NCBI GenBank assembly: GCA_003646715.1
Contig: QMLL01000001.1
Coordinates: 1 to 24,159 of the forward strand
Length of the DNA: 24,159 nt
Direction: 5' to 3'
From: Deltaproteobacteria bacterium
Lineage (GTDB): Bacteria > Desulfobacterota > Syntrophobacteria > B119-G9
Made by a program: the position numbers and the translations under genes. A model generated the notes under the pieces. The model was not told the DNA's origin. It saw only the letters and a program-made list of their open reading frames with translations, and did no database searches. Positions 1,798 to 12,147 of this stretch are shown piece by piece; position 1 is the first letter of the stretch, and each line of letters opens with the position of its first letter.

Positions 1798-2487
1798 ATG
1801 TACAAAAAGTTACTGGTACTTGTTTTGAGTATTTTGATTTCGCTTGTATCAAGTGGCACTCTGCGGGCGGGATCTTCTCTGGTGATAGATTGCTTCATGC
1901 CATCTGATAATGGAAAGTTTCCGAAAGGTTGGGAATCAAAGCAGATGGGTGAAGCCAGAGGAATTTACAAAGTGGTTCTTGAGGAAGGCAACGCTATTTT
2001 GTGTGCTCATTGCACGAGTAAAGCTGTATCCATAGGTAAGAAAATTGAGATTGACTTGAGAAAGTACCCCATTCTCAAATGGAGATGGAAAGTGGTTAAG
2101 TCCCCGATAGGAGCGGACGAGCGGCATAAGAAAACTGGGGACAGTGCAGCTGCAATATATGTTGTTTTTCCCAATGGAATGAAAGTTTGGAGCCCCAAAG
2201 CCATCAAATATGTCTGGAGTTCCAGCTCTATGCCTCAAAATTCAACCACTGTGAGTCCTTACGCTAGCAATACCAAGATAGTTGTTCTGGAAAACAGGGA
2301 GACACCTCTCGGCGTTTGGATAGAAGAAGAGGTGAACGTCCTTAAGGACTATACCAGATTTTTCGGGGAGAAAATCGTAAGCGCCAAAATGATAGGTATA
2401 ATGTCGGATTCTGATAATACGAATTCCGAAGTTCATGCCTGTTATGACGATATTGTGCTGGAAAGTATTTCAGCGAAAGTACAATGA
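1798..2487 (+). CDS. DUF3047-family exported protein
   Basis: N-terminal signal peptide, YPILKWRWKV, DSAAAIYVVF, IKYVWSS and IGIMSDSDNT motifs typical of DUF3047. SD AAGGAGG upstream. Confidence 0.85.
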   Translation: MYKKLLVLVLSILISLVSSGTLRAGSSLVIDCFMPSDNGKFPKGWESKQMGEARGIYKVVLEEGNAILCAHCTSKAVSIGKKIEIDLRKYPILKWRWKVVKSPIGADERHKKTGDSAAAIYVVFPNGMKVWSPKAIKYVWSSSSMPQNSTTVSPYASNTKIVVLENRETPLGVWIEEEVNVLKDYTRFFGEKIVSAKMIGIMSDSDNTNSEVHACYDDIVLESISAKVQ

Positions 2488-2512
2488 ATAATTAAGCCAG
2501 AGTAAATTCTGT

Positions 2513-2541
2513 TTGACAATGGCATCATTTGCTGGTAGTAG
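2513..2541 (+). promoter_or_regulatory. Sigma70-type promoter for the trp leader/trpB2 transcript
   Basis: TTGACA (2513-2518), a 17-nt spacer, TG at 2533-2534 and TAGTAG (2536-2541), about 35 nt upstream of the leader ATG. Confidence 0.6.
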
Positions 2542-2574
2542 TAACCGTAATCGTGGAGATAGGCGGATAGAGAT

Positions 2575-2655
2575 ATGAATACCACCTGTAGAAACTGTGA
2601 TGCAATTTCCTGTTTGTTTTGGTGGTGGCAGGCTCACATGAGCCTGCCCTCATAG
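2575..2655 (+). CDS. trpL: Trp leader peptide (attenuator peptide) MNTTCRNCDAISCLFWWWQAHMSLPS, 26 aa; not in the ORF track
   Basis: ATG 2575, three tandem TGG codons (2620-2628), TAG 2653-2655 and SD-like AGGCGG 2561-2566. It sits directly upstream of a terminator and a tryptophan synthase beta gene. Confidence 0.85.
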   Translation: MNTTCRNCDAISCLFWWWQAHMSLPS

Positions 2656-2760
2656 GCTCTATCTCTCTAAAATAGAATAAGGAGAGCCATGGGGTAGGTA
2701 AAGTCCCATGGCTCAAACTTTTTTAGATGCCGTGGGGCTTTCCTCACGGCATTTTAATTT
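2620..2760 (+). promoter_or_regulatory. Ribosome-mediated transcription attenuator of trpB2
   Basis: Mutually exclusive helices read by hand: 2627-2635/2640-2648; 2655-2660/2683-2688; 2684-2693/2705-2714; antiterminator 2700-2712/2729-2741 (13 bp, 2 G-U); terminator 2727-2737/2742-2752 plus a T-rich tail. Confidence 0.8.
2727..2760 (+). terminator. Attenuator terminator hairpin upstream of trpB2
   Basis: ATGCCGTGGGG-CTTT-CCTCACGGCAT followed by TTTAATTT, ending 26 nt before the trpB2 ATG. Confidence 0.8.
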
Positions 2761-2786
2761 GTGAAATTAAAGAAGGGAGGATTGTT

Positions 2787-4148
2787 ATGACAGACGTAAA
2801 GGTATTCCTGGATGAGAGCGAACTGCCCAGACAATGGTACAACATACTGGCAGATTTGCCCACACCAATGAAACCGCCTCTACACCCAGCTACGGGTGAA
2901 CCTATTAACCCAGAAGATCTCGCTCCAGTGTTTCCCATGAATCTTATTGAGCAGGAAGTGGCTTCGGATAGATGGATAGATATTCCGGAACCGGTGCTTG
3001 AAAAATACGCTCTTTGGAGACCGACTCCTCTGTATCGTGCAAAGAACTTTGAGAAGTTTCTCGATGCACCAGTGAAAATCTACTACAAGAACGAGGGGGT
3101 TAGTCCTCCGGGATCGCACAAGCCCAACACAGCGGTAGCTCAGGCTTATTACAACAAAGTTTTCGGAATAAAGAGAATATCCACCGAAACAGGGGCAGGG
3201 CAGTGGGGTAGCGCGCTTAGCATGGCCTGCCAGATGTTCGGTCTTCAATGCAGGGTTTTTATGGTGAGGGTAAGTTATGATCAAAAACCTTACAGACGTT
3301 TGATGATGGCAACATGGGGTGCAGAATGTGTTCCCAGTCCGAGCAATATAACAGAGGTTGGAAAAAAGATTCTCGAAGAGCATCCGGATTCTCCAGGTAG
3401 TCTGGGAATTGCCATAAGCGAGGCCATAGAAGATGCGGTGGGCGATGAGAATGCTCGTTACTCTCTGGGTAGTGTTCTCAATCATGTGCTTCTACATCAG
3501 ACCATCATAGGCCTTGAAGCTCAAAAACAGCTCGAGAAAATAGGGGAATATCCCGATGTGGTTATGGGTTGTGCCGGTGGTGGTAGTAATTTCGCAGGAA
3601 TATGTTTACCCTTTGTAAGAGATAAAATCCATGGGAAAGAAGTCTCCATTGTTGCTGCAGAACCCACATCGTGTCCAACCATGACTCGAGGACCATATGC
3701 TTATGACTTTGGCGACCTGGCAAAAACAACTCCCTTGTTGCCCATGCACACTCTTGGGCATGACTTTGTACCCCCTCCCATTCACGCTGGAGGGCTAAGA
3801 TACCACGGTATGGCTCCCATTATCAGTCATTTGTTGAAAGAAAAGCTTATTGAAGCTAGAGGCTTTAACCAGATAGATACTTTTACCGCAGGTGTTAACT
3901 GGGCAAGAACGGAAGGATTTATACCGGCACCTGAGACAAACCACGTCATTGCCGCTGTGGTTCAGGAAGCTCAAAAAGCAAAAGAAGAAGGAAAAGAAAA
4001 AGTCATCCTTTTCAACTGGAGCGGGCATGGGATTATTGATCTGGCCGCTTATGATGCCTTTTTATCAGGAAAATTGACTCAATATGAATTGCCAGAAGAA
4101 GAAATCGAAAGGGCTTTAAAATCGCTGGAAGGTCTGCCGAAACCGTAG
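2787..4148 (+). CDS. trpB2: Tryptophan synthase beta chain, stand-alone type 2 (TrpB2), 453 aa
   Basis: PLP-lysine motif GSHKPNTA plus [34 protein letters not shown] and FNWSGHG. Its length and N-terminus (PRQWYNI) fit TrpB2. The start is reassigned to ATG 2787 behind SD GGGAGG (2775-2780). No trpA is adjacent. Confidence 0.95.
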
Positions 4149-4178
4149 CTTAACAGGTTTCGGGGAGGTATCTAAGAG

Positions 4179-4457
4179 ATGATTGTAGATCTGGAAATTA
4201 GATGCCCCAAACTGGGGCATCAGGTAAAGTTTGACTACTGCGAAAAGGAGCAGATAAGTCTCCCGTGCAAAAGAATAATCAAATGCTGGCAAATTTACTT
4301 CCCGGTGGAGATTTATCTCAAGAAAAAGTTAACAGAAGAAGAGTGGAATAGGTGTTTTAACGAAAAACCCAAGGAAAAAATACTAACTTTGCTGGAATTG
4401 ATTGACGCAGCAAAGAGGAGGAAGGAGAAAAAAGGTCAGAGTAAAGATAAACTATAG
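4179..4457 (+). CDS. Small hypothetical protein with four Cys (C-x11-C-x8-C-x5-C), possibly metal-binding
   Basis: SD GGGGAGG 4162-4168, motif RCPKLGH...YC...PC...CW, a basic C-terminus and tight operon spacing. Confidence 0.7.
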   Translation: MIVDLEIRCPKLGHQVKFDYCEKEQISLPCKRIIKCWQIYFPVEIYLKKKLTEEEWNRCFNEKPKEKILTLLELIDAAKRRKEKKGQSKDKL

Positions 4458-4482
4458 CATTTAATCAGAGGAGGAAAGGGGT

Positions 4483-5466
4483 ATGAGGAGGTCTGAAAAA
4501 TCAAACAACAGGCGTTGTCAGATTGTTATAGGTCTTGTGGTCTTCTTTTCTTTTTTATTAGCTCCAGCTTTATCTTTTGCTTATCATGAACCAGCCCTTA
4601 ATCTTGGCTTTACAACGTTTCTGGATGGGGGCCCGCCCGCAGGACCAGGATTTTATTTCTCTCAATATTTTCAATACTATAACTCCGATAAGTTAACCGA
4701 CAGCGATGGTGATGAATTGTTGCCGCCGTTCGCTGATGAGGACCTCGATGTATTTATTAGTCTTTCCCAGCTAATATATCATTCGAACCAGCCAATACTG
4801 TTTGGAGGGAAATGGGGCTTCGAGTTGATCATACCCTACGTGGGACTTGATCTGGACTATGAGGTAAACGGGCCATTTCCTGAAGATAATGGCTCAGGTT
4901 TCGGAGATATTCTTATTGGGCCTTTTATTCAGTGGGATCCGATAATGGGTAAAAAGGGGCCTATCTTCATGCATCGTTTTGAGATTTCTGTGATAGTACC
5001 AACTGGCAAATATGACGATGACAAGGAACTCAATCCAGGGAGCAACTTTTTTTCAATTAACCCTTACTGGTCTGCGACTCTTTTTATCACCCCGAGATGG
5101 ACTCTTTCCGGGAGATTTCATTATCTCTGGAATGCAAAAAACGATGATCCCAACAGGCAGTTTGCGGGAGCGGATGATACACAGGCGGGACAAGCATTTC
5201 ATGTGAATTTTACCTCTGCTTATGAGGTAGTACCAAATAGATTCAGAGTAGGTATAAATGGTTATTATTTGAAGCAGTTTACAGATACCGAGGTGGACGG
5301 TCACGATATTTCAGATAGCAAAGAGCAGGTTTTAGGACTCGGTCCTGGCTTTGTGATCCACTTCTCAAGAGATATACATTTGGTTTTCAACGCATATTTT
5401 GAAACTCAGGTCGAAAACCGACCAAAAGGAGAACGGTATAATCTTAGGTTTTTGTATCATTTCTAG
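4483..5466 (+). CDS. SphA/COG4313 (phenol MetA-pathway-like) outer-membrane beta-barrel channel
   Basis: Signal peptide, LNLGFTTFLDG-PP-GPGFY, GFGDILIGP-IQW, PTGKYD, GINGYYLKQ-TD, VLGLGPG and a terminal aromatic residue (LYHF). SD GAGGAGG upstream. Confidence 0.85.
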   Translation: MRRSEKSNNRRCQIVIGLVVFFSFLLAPALSFAYHEPALNLGFTTFLDGGPPAGPGFYFSQYFQYYNSDKLTDSDGDELLPPFADEDLDVFISLSQLIYHSNQPILFGGKWGFELIIPYVGLDLDYEVNGPFPEDNGSGFGDILIGPFIQWDPIMGKKGPIFMHRFEISVIVPTGKYDDDKELNPGSNFFSINPYWSATLFITPRWTLSGRFHYLWNAKNDDPNRQFAGADDTQAGQAFHVNFTSAYEVVPNRFRVGINGYYLKQFTDTEVDGHDISDSKEQVLGLGPGFVIHFSRDIHLVFNAYFETQVENRPKGERYNLRFLYHF

Positions 5467-5519
5467 CCGGCCGAAGCAAAACTAATCAACGGGTAGTGTA
5501 CTGGTCAGCTGCCCGAGTA

Positions 5520-5621
5520 GTCCCGTGCCCATTTTGAAAACTCTTTCTCGAGCTGTGATAAGTGTTCGAATAGAACCACTACATTCCGGAAGCCCTTACA
5601 ATTTTAAAATGGGTGCGGGAC
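5520..5621. repeat. 102-bp element bounded by about 20-bp imperfect inverted repeats and flanked by GTA direct repeats (MITE-like or structured RNA)
   Basis: GTCCCGTGCCCATTTT(G)AAAA at 5520-5540 versus TTTTAAAATGGGTGCGGGAC at 5602-5621. GTA at 5517-5519 and 5622-5624. Confidence 0.5.
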
Positions 5622-5853
5622 GTATGTCGGGCCCTGAATCGGAAAGCCGTAGACTAAGGCAGATTTGTTTGACTCCTTTCTTGATATGCTGCTAGATTGT
5701 TTTTAGATGAACTATTTTCTACTCAGTATTAGCTCACGCGTTTCTCTAGATTTTTTATTCGAATTTATTGCAAAATTTGTGGTTAAGGCATGTTATTCAG
5801 TCTGGTAACGGAAGTGTTTGTTTCCGGGAACATCGCCGGAGGAGGAAAGTTTC

Positions 5854-9263: not shown

Positions 9264-9896
9264 ATGAAAATTATCATAATTGATAACTATGATTCCTTTA
9301 CGTACAATCTTTTCCAGCTATTTACTGTCACGGGCGCGGATGTGAAGGTATACAGGAATGATTGTATATCTCTTGATATTCTTTCTCATGAGCCCCCTGA
9401 TGCAATCATAATATCTCCAGGTCCCAAGGATCCGTCAGATTCGGGAATTAGTAAGGATGTGGTCAGGTATTTTGGCAAAACTGTACCCGTCCTCGGCGTA
9501 TGCTTAGGGATGCAGGTAATAAACGAGGTATTTGGTGGGGAAACGATTCTTGCTCCAAGGCCTGTGCATGGAGAAAAAGACCGAATTTTTCATAGCGGAA
9601 AAGGACTTTTTCAATCGATTCCATCTCCTTTTTTCGCAGCCAGATATCACTCTCTGGTTGTAAGCATTGCGAGTGATGACTTGATGATAACTGCCAGAAA
9701 TAGCGAGAATATTATAATGGCGATTGAGCACCTGAAATATCCCATTGTTGGCGTTCAATTTCATCCCGAATCTTTTATGACAGAATATGGTGAGAAAATG
9801 GCAGTGAATTTTCTTAAACAGGTAAAATATCATGGAAGTTCTTCCCAGGATAAAAAACATAATTCAGCTGGAGCCTTCTTTTTGGGAGCGAGATGA
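9264..9896 (+). CDS. pabA: Aminodeoxychorismate/anthranilate synthase component II (type I glutamine amidotransferase)
   Basis: IDNYDSFTYN, ISPGPKDP, GVCLG (catalytic Cys), ARYHSL and QFHPES (His-x-Glu). It precedes pabB/pabC. Confidence 0.9.
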   Translation: MKIIIIDNYDSFTYNLFQLFTVTGADVKVYRNDCISLDILSHEPPDAIIISPGPKDPSDSGISKDVVRYFGKTVPVLGVCLGMQVINEVFGGETILAPRPVHGEKDRIFHSGKGLFQSIPSPFFAARYHSLVVSIASDDLMITARNSENIIMAIEHLKYPIVGVQFHPESFMTEYGEKMAVNFLKQVKYHGSSSQDKKHNSAGAFFLGAR

Positions 9897-11250
9897 AAAA
9901 ATAGAAGATATCTTTACACCGCTCGCTTCAATACCCCACTCAGTGCTTTTGCTTAGTGGTGGCGACGGGGATTGTTCCAGGTATTCCTTTGCTGGCATTG
10001 AACCTTTTCTGATTGTACAATGTTGGAGAGATCTAGTAGAAATAAAAAATAAATCCGGGAAAACGGTACGACTCAAGGGAAATCCATTTGACATAGTGCA
10101 ATCTATCCTCGATCATCTCAAGGTTGATACGCAAGGTAGTGATGCACCATTTTGTGCCGGTGCCATGGGCTACTGGGGTTATGACCTTCGGTATCAACTG
10201 GAAAGACTTCCAGATATTGGTAATGATGATCTCTTGATACCGGACCTCTACCTTGTTTTCCCGAGCGTCATAATCACGCTGGATAGAGATAACAACCACT
10301 TCGTTTTGAATCTTGTCGAAACAGACATTGATAGTTTTGAACAGGATTCCGTGTCTGATAAGGTTGAAAGGTTAATAAAGTGGAGCAGGTACTGGCATAG
10401 CCATTTGTTCAATCTTCCTGAGCCCGTTTCAAAAGGAAAATATGATACAAATTTTACGAAAGAAGAGTATATTGAGGCCATCGATAAGACGAGAGATTAC
10501 ATTAGACACGGACATATCTATCAGGTAAATATTTCTCAACGCTTTACGTTTCCTTTTGAAGGTTCTGACTATTTGCTTTTCAGGAAACTTTTTCGTCTGA
10601 ACCCGGCTTCTTTTTTTGCATACATGAACTGTGGGGATTTTACGGTACTTTCCACATCCCCGGAACGTTTCATTTATCGCAACGGAGATTACATTGAAAC
10701 ACGTCCGATAAAAGGAACGAGACCTAGGGGAAAAACTCCCGACGAAGACGAAAAACTTCAAAGGGAACTTATTGAAAGTTCGAAAGAAGACGCTGAGTTA
10801 TCGATGATTGTTGATCTTCTCAGAAATGACTTGGGTAAGGTTTGTTTGCCTGGAACTGTAAAAGTAAAAGAACACAAGAGGATAGAAGCTTACCAGAACG
10901 TTTTTCATCTTGTTTCAATCGTGGAAGGGCGACTCCCGGAGCACTGCAGACACATGGATATACTTAAAGCAGTATTTCCGGGCGGATCCATTACAGGATG
11001 TCCGAAAGTGAGGGCAATGGAAATTATAGAGGAGCTGGAAACGGTAAAGCGTAATATCTACACAGGGTCTATAGGGTACGTTGGTTTAAATGGAACCATG
11101 GACCTCAACATAGCTATAAGGACAGCGATAAGGAAAGGGGACAAGCTCTATCTGTCGGTAGGTGGAGGTATTGTATATGGTTCAGAACCGGAAGCGGAAT
11201 ACATGGAAACAATTCACAAAGGTGAGACCTTCTTACAATTGCTGTCCTAG
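9832..11250 (+). CDS. pabB: Aminodeoxychorismate synthase component I (chorismate-binding enzyme)
   Basis: GHIYQVN, SPERF, TRPIKGTRPRG, AELSMIVDL-RNDLG, FPGGSITGCPK-RAMEII and LNIAIRT. Assigned as PabB rather than TrpE because a class IV aminotransferase follows it. Confidence 0.88.
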   Translation: MEVLPRIKNIIQLEPSFWERDEKIEDIFTPLASIPHSVLLLSGGDGDCSRYSFAGIEPFLIVQCWRDLVEIKNKSGKTVRLKGNPFDIVQSILDHLKVDTQGSDAPFCAGAMGYWGYDLRYQLERLPDIGNDDLLIPDLYLVFPSVIITLDRDNNHFVLNLVETDIDSFEQDSVSDKVERLIKWSRYWHSHLFNLPEPVSKGKYDTNFTKEEYIEAIDKTRDYIRHGHIYQVNISQRFTFPFEGSDYLLFRKLFRLNPASFFAYMNCGDFTVLSTSPERFIYRNGDYIETRPIKGTRPRGKTPDEDEKLQRELIESSKEDAELSMIVDLLRNDLGKVCLPGTVKVKEHKRIEAYQNVFHLVSIVEGRLPEHCRHMDILKAVFPGGSITGCPKVRAMEIIEELETVKRNIYTGSIGYVGLNGTMDLNIAIRTAIRKGDKLYLSVGGGIVYGSEPEAEYMETIHKGETFLQLLS

Positions 11251-11292
11251 ACGGTTGGGCATTAGTCTAATGTTAAAAGGATCACAAGAACT

Positions 11293-12147
11293 GTGGAAGA
11301 ATACATATATGTGAACAACACCCTTGTCCCGATCTCTGAGGCCAGAATTTCTCCGCTCGATCGTGGTTTTCTCTACGGAGACGGCCTTTTTGAAACTATT
11401 CGTGTGAACCGGGGACGCCCCCTTTTTCTGAAAGATCACCTAGAAAGAATAGAGAGTTCCTGCTCTGCTTTTAACATTTGTCTTGACGTAGATCCGATAG
11501 AAGACTGGTATGAAAAAATTGAAAGAGTGATTGCAGCAAATAACCTGGGTGATGGGCTGGCGGCAGTTAAAATCCTGGTAACGAGGGGAACCGATTTTCC
11601 TGAACCGAGACTTCCTAAATCTCAGAAACCTACAGTGATAATCTATGCCCGTTCGTATAATCCTCCTTCCAGTGAGAAATACAATAAAGGCTTGAAATTG
11701 ATTACCTTTCCCCACAGAAGACACACAAAGCTGGCAGATTATAAAAGTCTTAATTATCTTTTTTATCTTGCTGCAAAAGAATGGGCGGTAGGGAAGGGGG
11801 GCGATGAAGCCCTTATACTTAATGGTGACGGTACGGTATCCGAGGGATCCACCACAAACATTTTTTACGTGAAGGATGGTAAAGTATATAAGCCTATTTC
11901 CGCACATTATCTTAGAGGAATCATGGAAAAGCAAGTGATAAAGTTTCTTGAGACGGCAGGCGTGGAGGTGAAAGAAAAAGAAACGTATATTGAAGGTTTG
12001 CTGGAAGCTGATGAACTATTTCTCACCAATTCCCTGGTTGAGGTTATACCTGCATACTCGATTGACGGAAAGGTTTTGTCGAGAAAAGGAAATACAATAA
12101 GGGAACTTGTTGAAATGGACTGGGGAAGGATTGCAAATTGTCTGTAA
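11293..12147 (+). CDS. pabC: Class IV aminotransferase, probable 4-amino-4-deoxychorismate lyase
   Basis: DRGFLYGDGLFETIR, the PLP-Lys context YKSLNY, EGSTTNIF, L-GIM and LFLTNS. Directly downstream of pabB. Confidence 0.8.
   Translation: MEEYIYVNNTLVPISEARISPLDRGFLYGDGLFETIRVNRGRPLFLKDHLERIESSCSAFNICLDVDPIEDWYEKIERVIAANNLGDGLAAVKILVTRGTDFPEPRLPKSQKPTVIIYARSYNPPSSEKYNKGLKLITFPHRRHTKLADYKSLNYLFYLAAKEWAVGKGGDEALILNGDGTVSEGSTTNIFYVKDGKVYKPISAHYLRGIMEKQVIKFLETAGVEVKEKETYIEGLLEADELFLTNSLVEVIPAYSIDGKVLSRKGNTIRELVEMDWGRIANCL

Follow-up and report, generated by a model that had tools for sequence, protein, structure and literature searches.

What is an outer-membrane channel doing in an operon that appears to serve tryptophan (Trp) supply? 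The question is raised by a 24,159-nucleotide stretch of DNA from Deltaproteobacteria bacterium, a sediment organism of the sulfate-reducer type (assembly GCA_003646715.1, contig QMLL01000001.1; hereafter the window), where three consecutive genes behind a predicted Trp attenuator encode a stand-alone tryptophan synthase beta-like enzyme (TrpB2), a 92-residue protein with four conserved cysteines (here named p92) and an outer-membrane beta-barrel of the COG4313 family. A first-pass annotation had proposed that Trp starvation switches on an entry route for indole together with the enzyme that converts it to Trp. With a probability of about one half, we read the locus as a Trp-shortage operon controlled by attenuation, in which TrpB2 salvages indole, p92 is its accessory and the barrel lets indole in. 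The window is contig C1 of a metagenome-assembled genome (MAG) of 2.74 Mb (68.7% complete, 559 contigs, about 43% G+C), and the closest relatives of this genome were deposited as Desulfobacterales or 'Deltaproteobacteria' MAGs.

The three genes lie head to tail on the + strand: trpB2 (2787–4148) encodes a stand-alone TrpB-like pyridoxal 5'-phosphate (PLP) enzyme of 453 residues; p92 (4179–4457) a cytoplasmic protein with the pattern C9-x11-C21-x8-C30-x5-C36; and the third gene (4483–5466) a COG4313/PF13557 barrel of 327 residues, whose N-terminal signal peptide ends in ...LSFA. The genes are separated by 30 nt and 25 nt, and a GGAGG-type ribosome-binding site is located 7–10 nt 5' of the ATG of each gene. 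The longest trpB2 open reading frame (ORF) starts at 2727, within the second of the terminators described below; homologues and the family model favor the start at 2787. A consensus scan, which returned 4 sites in total against 3.2 expected by chance, called nothing promoter-like on the + strand from 2400 to 5669, and the sole + strand terminator-like site in 2754–5466 is a weak 7-bp stem (5332–5348) within the barrel ORF. The co-oriented, closely spaced arrangement with strong ribosome-binding sites and no terminator between the genes, as first described, is thus borne out by the ORFs, the ribosome-binding sites and the scan. Between the barrel gene and the next gene, a GGDEF gene, lie about 350 nt that contain a promoter-like site (5669–5698); the unit therefore ends with the barrel gene. 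That trpB2, p92 and the barrel gene form one operon under attenuation is very likely.

The region upstream of trpB2 contains the elements of a ribosome-mediated attenuator. A leader peptide ORF of 26 codons (2575–2655, + strand; MNTTCRNCDAISCLFWWWQAHMSLPS) carries three consecutive Trp codons (TGG TGG TGG at 2620–2628) and stops at 2653–2655. Terminator 1 (2684–2724) consists of a G+C-rich hairpin of 11–12 bp (2684–2714), AAAC and TTTTTT at 2719–2724; it is directly followed by terminator 2 (2725–2763), a 13-bp hairpin (2725–2754) with a T-rich tail. Antiterminator pairings extend over 2644–2741 in the constrained folds and in the minimum-free-energy fold. A TTGACA hexamer at 2514–2519, read from the sequence, could tentatively be the -35 element of the leader promoter, although the consensus scan called no full promoter there. 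The leader region folds far better than shuffled sequences (z-score -5.1, with 0 of 200 shuffles equally good).

The RNA left free was folded with a ribosome at the Trp codons, with a ribosome at the stop codon and with no ribosome. When the ribosome is at the Trp codons, 2644–2697 pairs and removes the 5' arm of terminator 1, whose 3' arm is thereby released to pair with the 5' arm of terminator 2 (2700–2741). A ribosome located at the stop codon allows both terminators to fold, the first with -19.9 kcal/mol; without a ribosome, a leader-internal hairpin forms together with terminator 1. No Rfam family matches the leader. Tandem Trp codons in a short ORF, a T-run behind the terminator hairpin and an antiterminator whose formation excludes that of the terminator are all present, and by these sequence features the leader is a Trp attenuator of textbook logic with a double terminator, through which Trp would regulate the operon.

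The leader is conserved in relatives, which were searched for short ORFs containing WW within 450 nt upstream of trpB2. Such leaders were found in 8 of 14 testable loci of a first set from the class (e.g. ...FLWWWRAFL and ...MWWWQAWT) and, among 80 species-level loci across the Thermodesulfobacteriota, in 35 of the 60 that were testable, with the consensus [FL]WWW[QR][AV]. Almost all leader-bearing loci (33/34) have a hairpin and T-run between the leader stop and trpB2. Loci with the barrel carry the leader in 13 of 16 cases, compared with 19/36 for loci without it. Leader, double terminator, folds and conservation all agree with the original placement of the unit downstream of a Trp attenuator. 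In relatives from one large genus (g3; L036:7200-7535, L039 and L040), repeated GATGTGAGATGTGAGAT motifs face CTCACATCACATATCGCACATCCCACATC upstream of trpB2, possibly a different regulatory element.

A check proposed at the outset was whether the genome can make Trp de novo. Contig C4 of the same assembly encodes a complete trpE-G-D-C-F-B1-A operon, followed by genes for 3-deoxy-D-arabino-heptulosonate 7-phosphate (DAHP) synthase and prephenate dehydrogenase. This trpEGDCFBA operon has a WWW leader of its own (L005:5326-5520; 26 codons, MELTIGKSDVRYYWWWYSYGRVMSTA) and two tandem hairpin-plus-T-run terminators. Since both the de novo operon and the trpB2 unit carry a WWW leader and two terminators, they share one regulatory design. 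As far as the assembly indicates, the organism is not a Trp auxotroph; the complete pathway thus makes salvage supplementary rather than obligatory. No tryptophanase was found in this genome, which is 68.7% complete.

The family assignment of the enzyme is clear. The trpB2 product scores 747 bits against NF009057 (cut-off 366) and 670 bits against TIGR01415 (cut-off 519), compared with 147 bits, below the cut-off of 392, against the canonical trpB model TIGR00263, and among solved structures it is closest to Sulfolobus TrpB2 (6HUL_B, 4QYS_B and 6HTE_B). The PLP lysine Lys112 (GSHKPNT) and the catalytic Glu134 (ETGAGQWG), which we take to be equivalent to Lys87 and Glu109 of the Salmonella enzyme, are invariant in 16 orthologues, and the protein is strongly conserved throughout (mean column identity 89%).

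The description of TrpB2 as an indole-salvage enzyme agrees with passages in PMC11535334 and PMC11085991, which cite Hettwer & Sterner 2002 and Hiyama 2014 for it. As described there and in the references therein, Thermotoga maritima TrpB2 has an indole Km of less than 1 µM, genetics in Thermococcus kodakarensis back indole salvage by TrpB2, and a Bacteroides TrpB2 rescues an Escherichia coli trpA mutant via cross-fed indole (PMC11535334, PMC11085991). By analogy with these enzymes, the TrpB2 encoded here would salvage indole as well.

The most tightly linked partner of trpB2 is p92. This position sets it apart from the bystander as which the first-pass annotation had treated it: in the phylum-wide set, p92 is directly 3' of trpB2 in 63 of 66 testable loci, and in the class census (122 species genomes, overlapping with the phylum-wide set) in 75 of 83 p92 loci, most exceptions being contig ends. 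Two divergent metagenome members are likewise preceded by a PALP-domain gene for a protein of 456–458 residues. With the window protein as query, a homologue was found in 22 of 41 relatives. The association is specific to a clade of TrpB2 enzymes at least 67% identical to that of the window; p92 accompanies none of 16 enzymes in a clade of about 60% identity from the same class. The two clades were compared for a docking feature in TrpB2, which yielded no clade-specific indels and 32 scattered fixed differences. Longer proteins that include p92 were also sought: no fusion with TrpB2 was found, and the sole match was a weak one to a 331-residue AAA-domain protein (about one third of p92 covered, E 1.5e-5) that is probably a miscalled neighbour. 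A predicted complex of TrpB2 and p92 scored 0.01, below the mark, which speaks neither for nor against binding.

The p92 family is unannotated. With sequences clustered at 90%, a profile collected 1017 proteins, all from Thermodesulfobacteriota, all unnamed or 'hypothetical' and none with a Pfam domain; at 50% identity it collected 426 representatives. In 142 diverse members of the latter set, the four cysteines are 99–100% conserved, and Cys59 is not conserved; in an alignment of 20 sequences, Arg8, Cys9, Pro10, Leu12, Gly13, Val16, Tyr20, Cys21, Glu24, Pro29, Cys30, Arg32, Cys36, Trp37 and Glu73 are invariant. The AlphaFold model (predicted local distance difference test score, pLDDT, 78.5) consists of a small N-terminal beta/alpha part that bears the cysteines and a helical C-terminal half. 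A classical zinc ribbon or anti-TRAP-like domain was considered; the spacing C-x11-C-x8-C-x5-C lacks the two CxxC knuckles of such domains. No match was obtained for p92 in Pfam (E≤0.01) or NCBIfam, nor for its profile among PDB sequences; scanned singly against Pfam at E≤5, 20 orthologues gave three single-member, chance-level matches and nothing recurrent. In searches of the PDB with the model, Foldseek returned nothing at E≤0.001 and a wide VIA-align comparison reached no higher Z than 3.5; ESM Atlas matches of the model are confined to unnamed Thermodesulfobacteriota clusters. Neither the Pfam nor the PDB matches include a family or fold of the ParB/Srx type. Judged from its cysteines and its gene order, p92 is probably a metal-binding accessory of this TrpB2 clade.

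Two further gene neighbourhoods concern p92. Genes for iorA and iorB, which encode indolepyruvate:ferredoxin oxidoreductase, lie 3' of p92 in the Thermodesulfobacteriota loci L134:5851-8705, L140:3190-6035 and L149:6474-9078 (TIGR03336, 637–656 bits). In L134 and in L140, which has no trpB2 upstream, the iorA start overlaps the p92 stop; in L149, 231 nt separate the two genes. At the level of gene order, this adjacency is a second link of p92 to indole-ring metabolism. In L152 (3589–6954), trpB2 and serA flank a divergent member of the p92 family. The serA product, an ACT-domain 3-phosphoglycerate dehydrogenase, catalyses the first step of the phosphoserine pathway, which fits the reported preference of TrpB2 for O-phosphoserine.

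The third gene product is a COG4313 channel by both profile and fold. It scores 224 bits against PF13557 (Phenol_MetA_deg; cut-off 22) over profile positions 1–242 of 242, and no other PF13557 gene was found in this incomplete assembly. The AlphaFold model is of moderate quality (pLDDT 64.5, predicted template modeling score 0.62), with pLDDT below 50 in residues 28–53, the candidate lumen-plug region. Its best PDB match is Pput2725 (4RL8; E 4.5e-11, template modeling (TM) scores 0.60/0.71), which was found by fold comparison alone, since phmmer gave no match among PDB sequences. The literature ties COG4313 channels to uptake of amphipathic or aromatic compounds, in line with the link to hydrophobic aromatics drawn earlier for this locus, and the sole substrates proposed are trichlorophenol for TcpY and sphingosine for SphA (PMC4493636). 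Pput2725 passes hydrophilic solutes poorly, including amino acids larger than glycine, and binds detergent, from which its authors proposed amphipathic substrates (PMC4493636).

Seen from the barrel side, the linkage to the trpB2-p92 unit is strong. Of the 38 class loci with an orthologue of at least 60% identity, 27 (about 70%) have it directly after p92, with gaps of 45–350 nt; among the other 11, one adjoins trpB2 where p92 has been lost, two are at contig breaks and about eight are truly elsewhere. The order trpB2-small ORF-barrel is kept across several families and at least three orders, and among three long metagenome contigs picked by way of the barrel, the order is PALP-small ORF-barrel in two and a transposase lies upstream in the third. 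Listed orthologues come, among others, from a Desulfosoma MAG and from MAGs of Syntrophobacteraceae. In a maximum-likelihood tree, 27 barrels group largely in line with taxonomy, stand-alone copies are interspersed among operon copies, and the well-supported branches force at least four changes of state between the two. Thus, the barrel has been inherited with the operon and has several times left or joined it. Behind the barrel, no gene recurs in fourth place across the loci examined, and no inner-membrane transporter is linked to the unit at any of them. At loci without the barrel, the next co-directional genes encode MgsA/RarA (20 loci), Der (9), a flavoprotein (6), a PilT-like ATPase (5) or iorA-iorB (3); genomes of genus g3 without the barrel in the operon mostly have no barrel at all.

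Two other features of the window lie downstream of the barrel gene. A long inverted repeat directly 3' of it (5511–5632) has arms of about 20 bp (GTCCCGTGCCCATTTTGAAAA and TTTTAAAATGGGTGCGGGAC) and a loop of about 70 nt, without a T-run; the fold z-score of the region is -2.65. About 4 kb downstream, at window positions 9700–12100 by correspondence with L026:9836-12151, a second gene for a chorismate-binding enzyme (PF04715/PF00425, 472 residues) is followed by an Aminotran_4 gene. The pair is probably pabB-pabC and not another anthranilate synthase.

These observations suggest the following mechanism. When charged tRNA-Trp is scarce, the ribosome would stall on the three leader Trp codons, the antiterminator pairing would form and RNA polymerase would read past both terminators and transcribe trpB2, p92 and the barrel gene. 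TrpB2 would then convert free indole and serine or O-phosphoserine to Trp, beside the complete and similarly attenuated trpEGDCFBA route, with the small cytoplasmic p92 as a specific accessory of this enzyme clade. The barrel would be an optional third component that passes a small hydrophobic Trp precursor, with indole as the leading candidate, through the lipopolysaccharide barrier of the outer membrane; at the inner membrane, indole should need no transporter, and the lack of a linked one fits an indole-like substrate. A Trp-starvation signal, an indole-consuming enzyme and a hydrophobic-substrate channel without an inner-membrane partner together make indole the simplest candidate for the barrel. 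We propose it tentatively, at somewhat less than even odds.

Several observations weigh against the reading of the locus as an operon for indole entry and salvage. No sequence feature or residue-level argument ties the barrel to indole, and indole is small and membrane-permeant, so that a dedicated channel is not obviously needed. The barrel is present in only 17 of 69 testable trpB2-p92 loci; TrpB2 therefore works without it, and by this distribution the barrel would be dispensable in most lineages. Where the barrel gene stands alone, no WW leader precedes it within 600 nt, and the genes around it vary, including a quinone oxidoreductase-like gene (so labelled by sequence appearance only), a MarR-like gene and a transposase. 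The large genus g3 carries trpB2-p92 without the barrel, and no W-containing leader was found there. The complete genome CP070692.1 (L050, 3833972–3850244) keeps an intact p92, flanked as in relatives by flavoprotein and AICARFT genes, and has neither trpB2 nor the barrel, which implies that p92 may have a role of its own; p92 also occurs without trpB2 in two further loci. Finally, the relatives are not independent samples, and the fractions given here describe a pattern rather than statistics. Conservation of the neighbourhood, a check that the first-pass annotation had suggested, accordingly came out divided, with barrel orthologues held in place across several orders and the barrel itself in a minority of trpB2 operons. 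Of its central proposal, a single unit behind an attenuator stands, whereas nothing assigns indole to the barrel.

Among the alternatives, the operon may be Trp-regulated while the barrel admits another Trp-related compound, such as tryptophan, Trp-containing peptides, indole-3-acetate, indolepyruvate, anthranilate or substituted indoles. Attenuation tells only that the genes are wanted under Trp shortage, the known COG4313 substrates are amphipathic and diverse (PMC4493636), and the iorAB genes directly after p92 in three loci indicate that other indole-ring compounds are handled beside the module. Most such compounds would, however, need an inner-membrane permease, none of which is linked at any locus; the neighbouring enzyme uses indole, and the poor passage of amino acids larger than glycine through Pput2725 (PMC4493636) argues against amino-acid cargo. 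We consider another compound of this kind unlikely. Equally unlikely, in our view, is that the barrel is a general or unrelated channel for hydrophobic compounds which rides on the trpB2 transcript, its linkage being historical rather than functional. Its absence from about three quarters of trpB2-p92 operons would be expected of such a passenger, as would the interspersed stand-alone copies without Trp leaders, and the genes that follow p92 at barrel-less loci (MgsA, Der) are housekeeping genes without functional connection to the unit. Against this stands the exact position held by about 70% of orthologues down to 60% identity, in several families and orders, and the 25-nt gap in the window, which leaves no space for a promoter of the barrel's own outside the p92 coding sequence.

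A more distant alternative moves the doubt to TrpB2 and p92, which would not primarily serve indole salvage: the enzyme could catalyse another beta-replacement, or p92 could be a regulator instead of an enzyme partner. The activity of this TrpB2 clade is a prediction, p92 persists without trpB2 in one complete genome and two further loci, and its C-terminal half is basic and helical. The strong conservation of the catalytic residues and of the whole enzyme, however, together with a Trp-codon leader that couples expression to Trp supply, makes this improbable. There is also a bolder version of indole salvage, in which p92 is an obligate metal-binding subunit or activator, so that this TrpB2 clade would form a two-component tryptophan synthase with a 9-kDa four-cysteine protein in place of TrpA, and the barrel would be a dedicated indole gate. 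We regard that version as doubtful, if slightly less so than a barrel for another Trp-related compound or a passenger barrel.

Little is established about the physiological setting of the widespread TrpB2 enzymes, and COG4313 channels have almost no assigned substrates. The operon offers both a testable context, with a regulatory signal (Trp starvation) and a candidate substrate (indole). It further reveals an unannotated protein family, more than 1000 sequences strong, whose near-obligate position after trpB2 suggests that this TrpB2 clade does not act alone. If indole uptake is confirmed, sulfate-reducing and syntrophic Thermodesulfobacteriota would harvest indole released by their neighbours. 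If the barrel is a dedicated indole gate, it would provide the first COG4313 substrate in an anabolic context and point to cross-feeding on community indole in anoxic sediments.

The component types, TrpB2, a leader-peptide attenuator and a COG4313 channel, are each known already. In the literature searched, we found no link of COG4313/PF13557 to indole or of trpB2 to a four-cysteine partner, no description of the p92 family or its association with a TrpB2 clade, and no report of the combination in one Trp-attenuated operon. The stand-alone TrpB2 enzymes of T. maritima, T. kodakarensis and Sulfolobus (TrpB2a/TrpB2i; 4QYS, 6HUL, 6HTE) belong to the same family (NF009057/TIGR01415; phmmer E down to 7e-132 between the window enzyme and 6HUL_B), and are likewise encoded apart from trpA/trpB1 and likewise proposed to salvage indole. 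Unlike them, the window trpB2, whose activity is predicted, comes with a leader-peptide attenuator, a clade-specific four-cysteine protein and, in one quarter of cases, an outer-membrane channel. With the E. coli-type trpL attenuator, the leader has in common a short ORF, consecutive Trp codons, alternative helices and a T-run; it differs in having three Trp codons and two tandem terminators joined by a chain of pairings, and the genome uses this design for a salvage operon as well as for the biosynthetic one.

The barrel shares the PF13557 domain, a mature length of about 295 residues and the barrel fold with the COG4313 channels Pput2725 (4RL8), TcpY and SphA. It is only about 16% identical to Pput2725, and is encoded in an amino-acid salvage operon rather than a catabolic or stress operon. 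A parallel in another family is provided by the FadL-family channels TodX and TbuX, which are encoded in toluene-degradation operons. These are different barrels, and FadL structures match the barrel model weakly (TM about 0.4), but the two cases would share one logic: the enzyme that consumes a small hydrophobic aromatic compound is co-expressed with the channel that admits this compound through the outer membrane.

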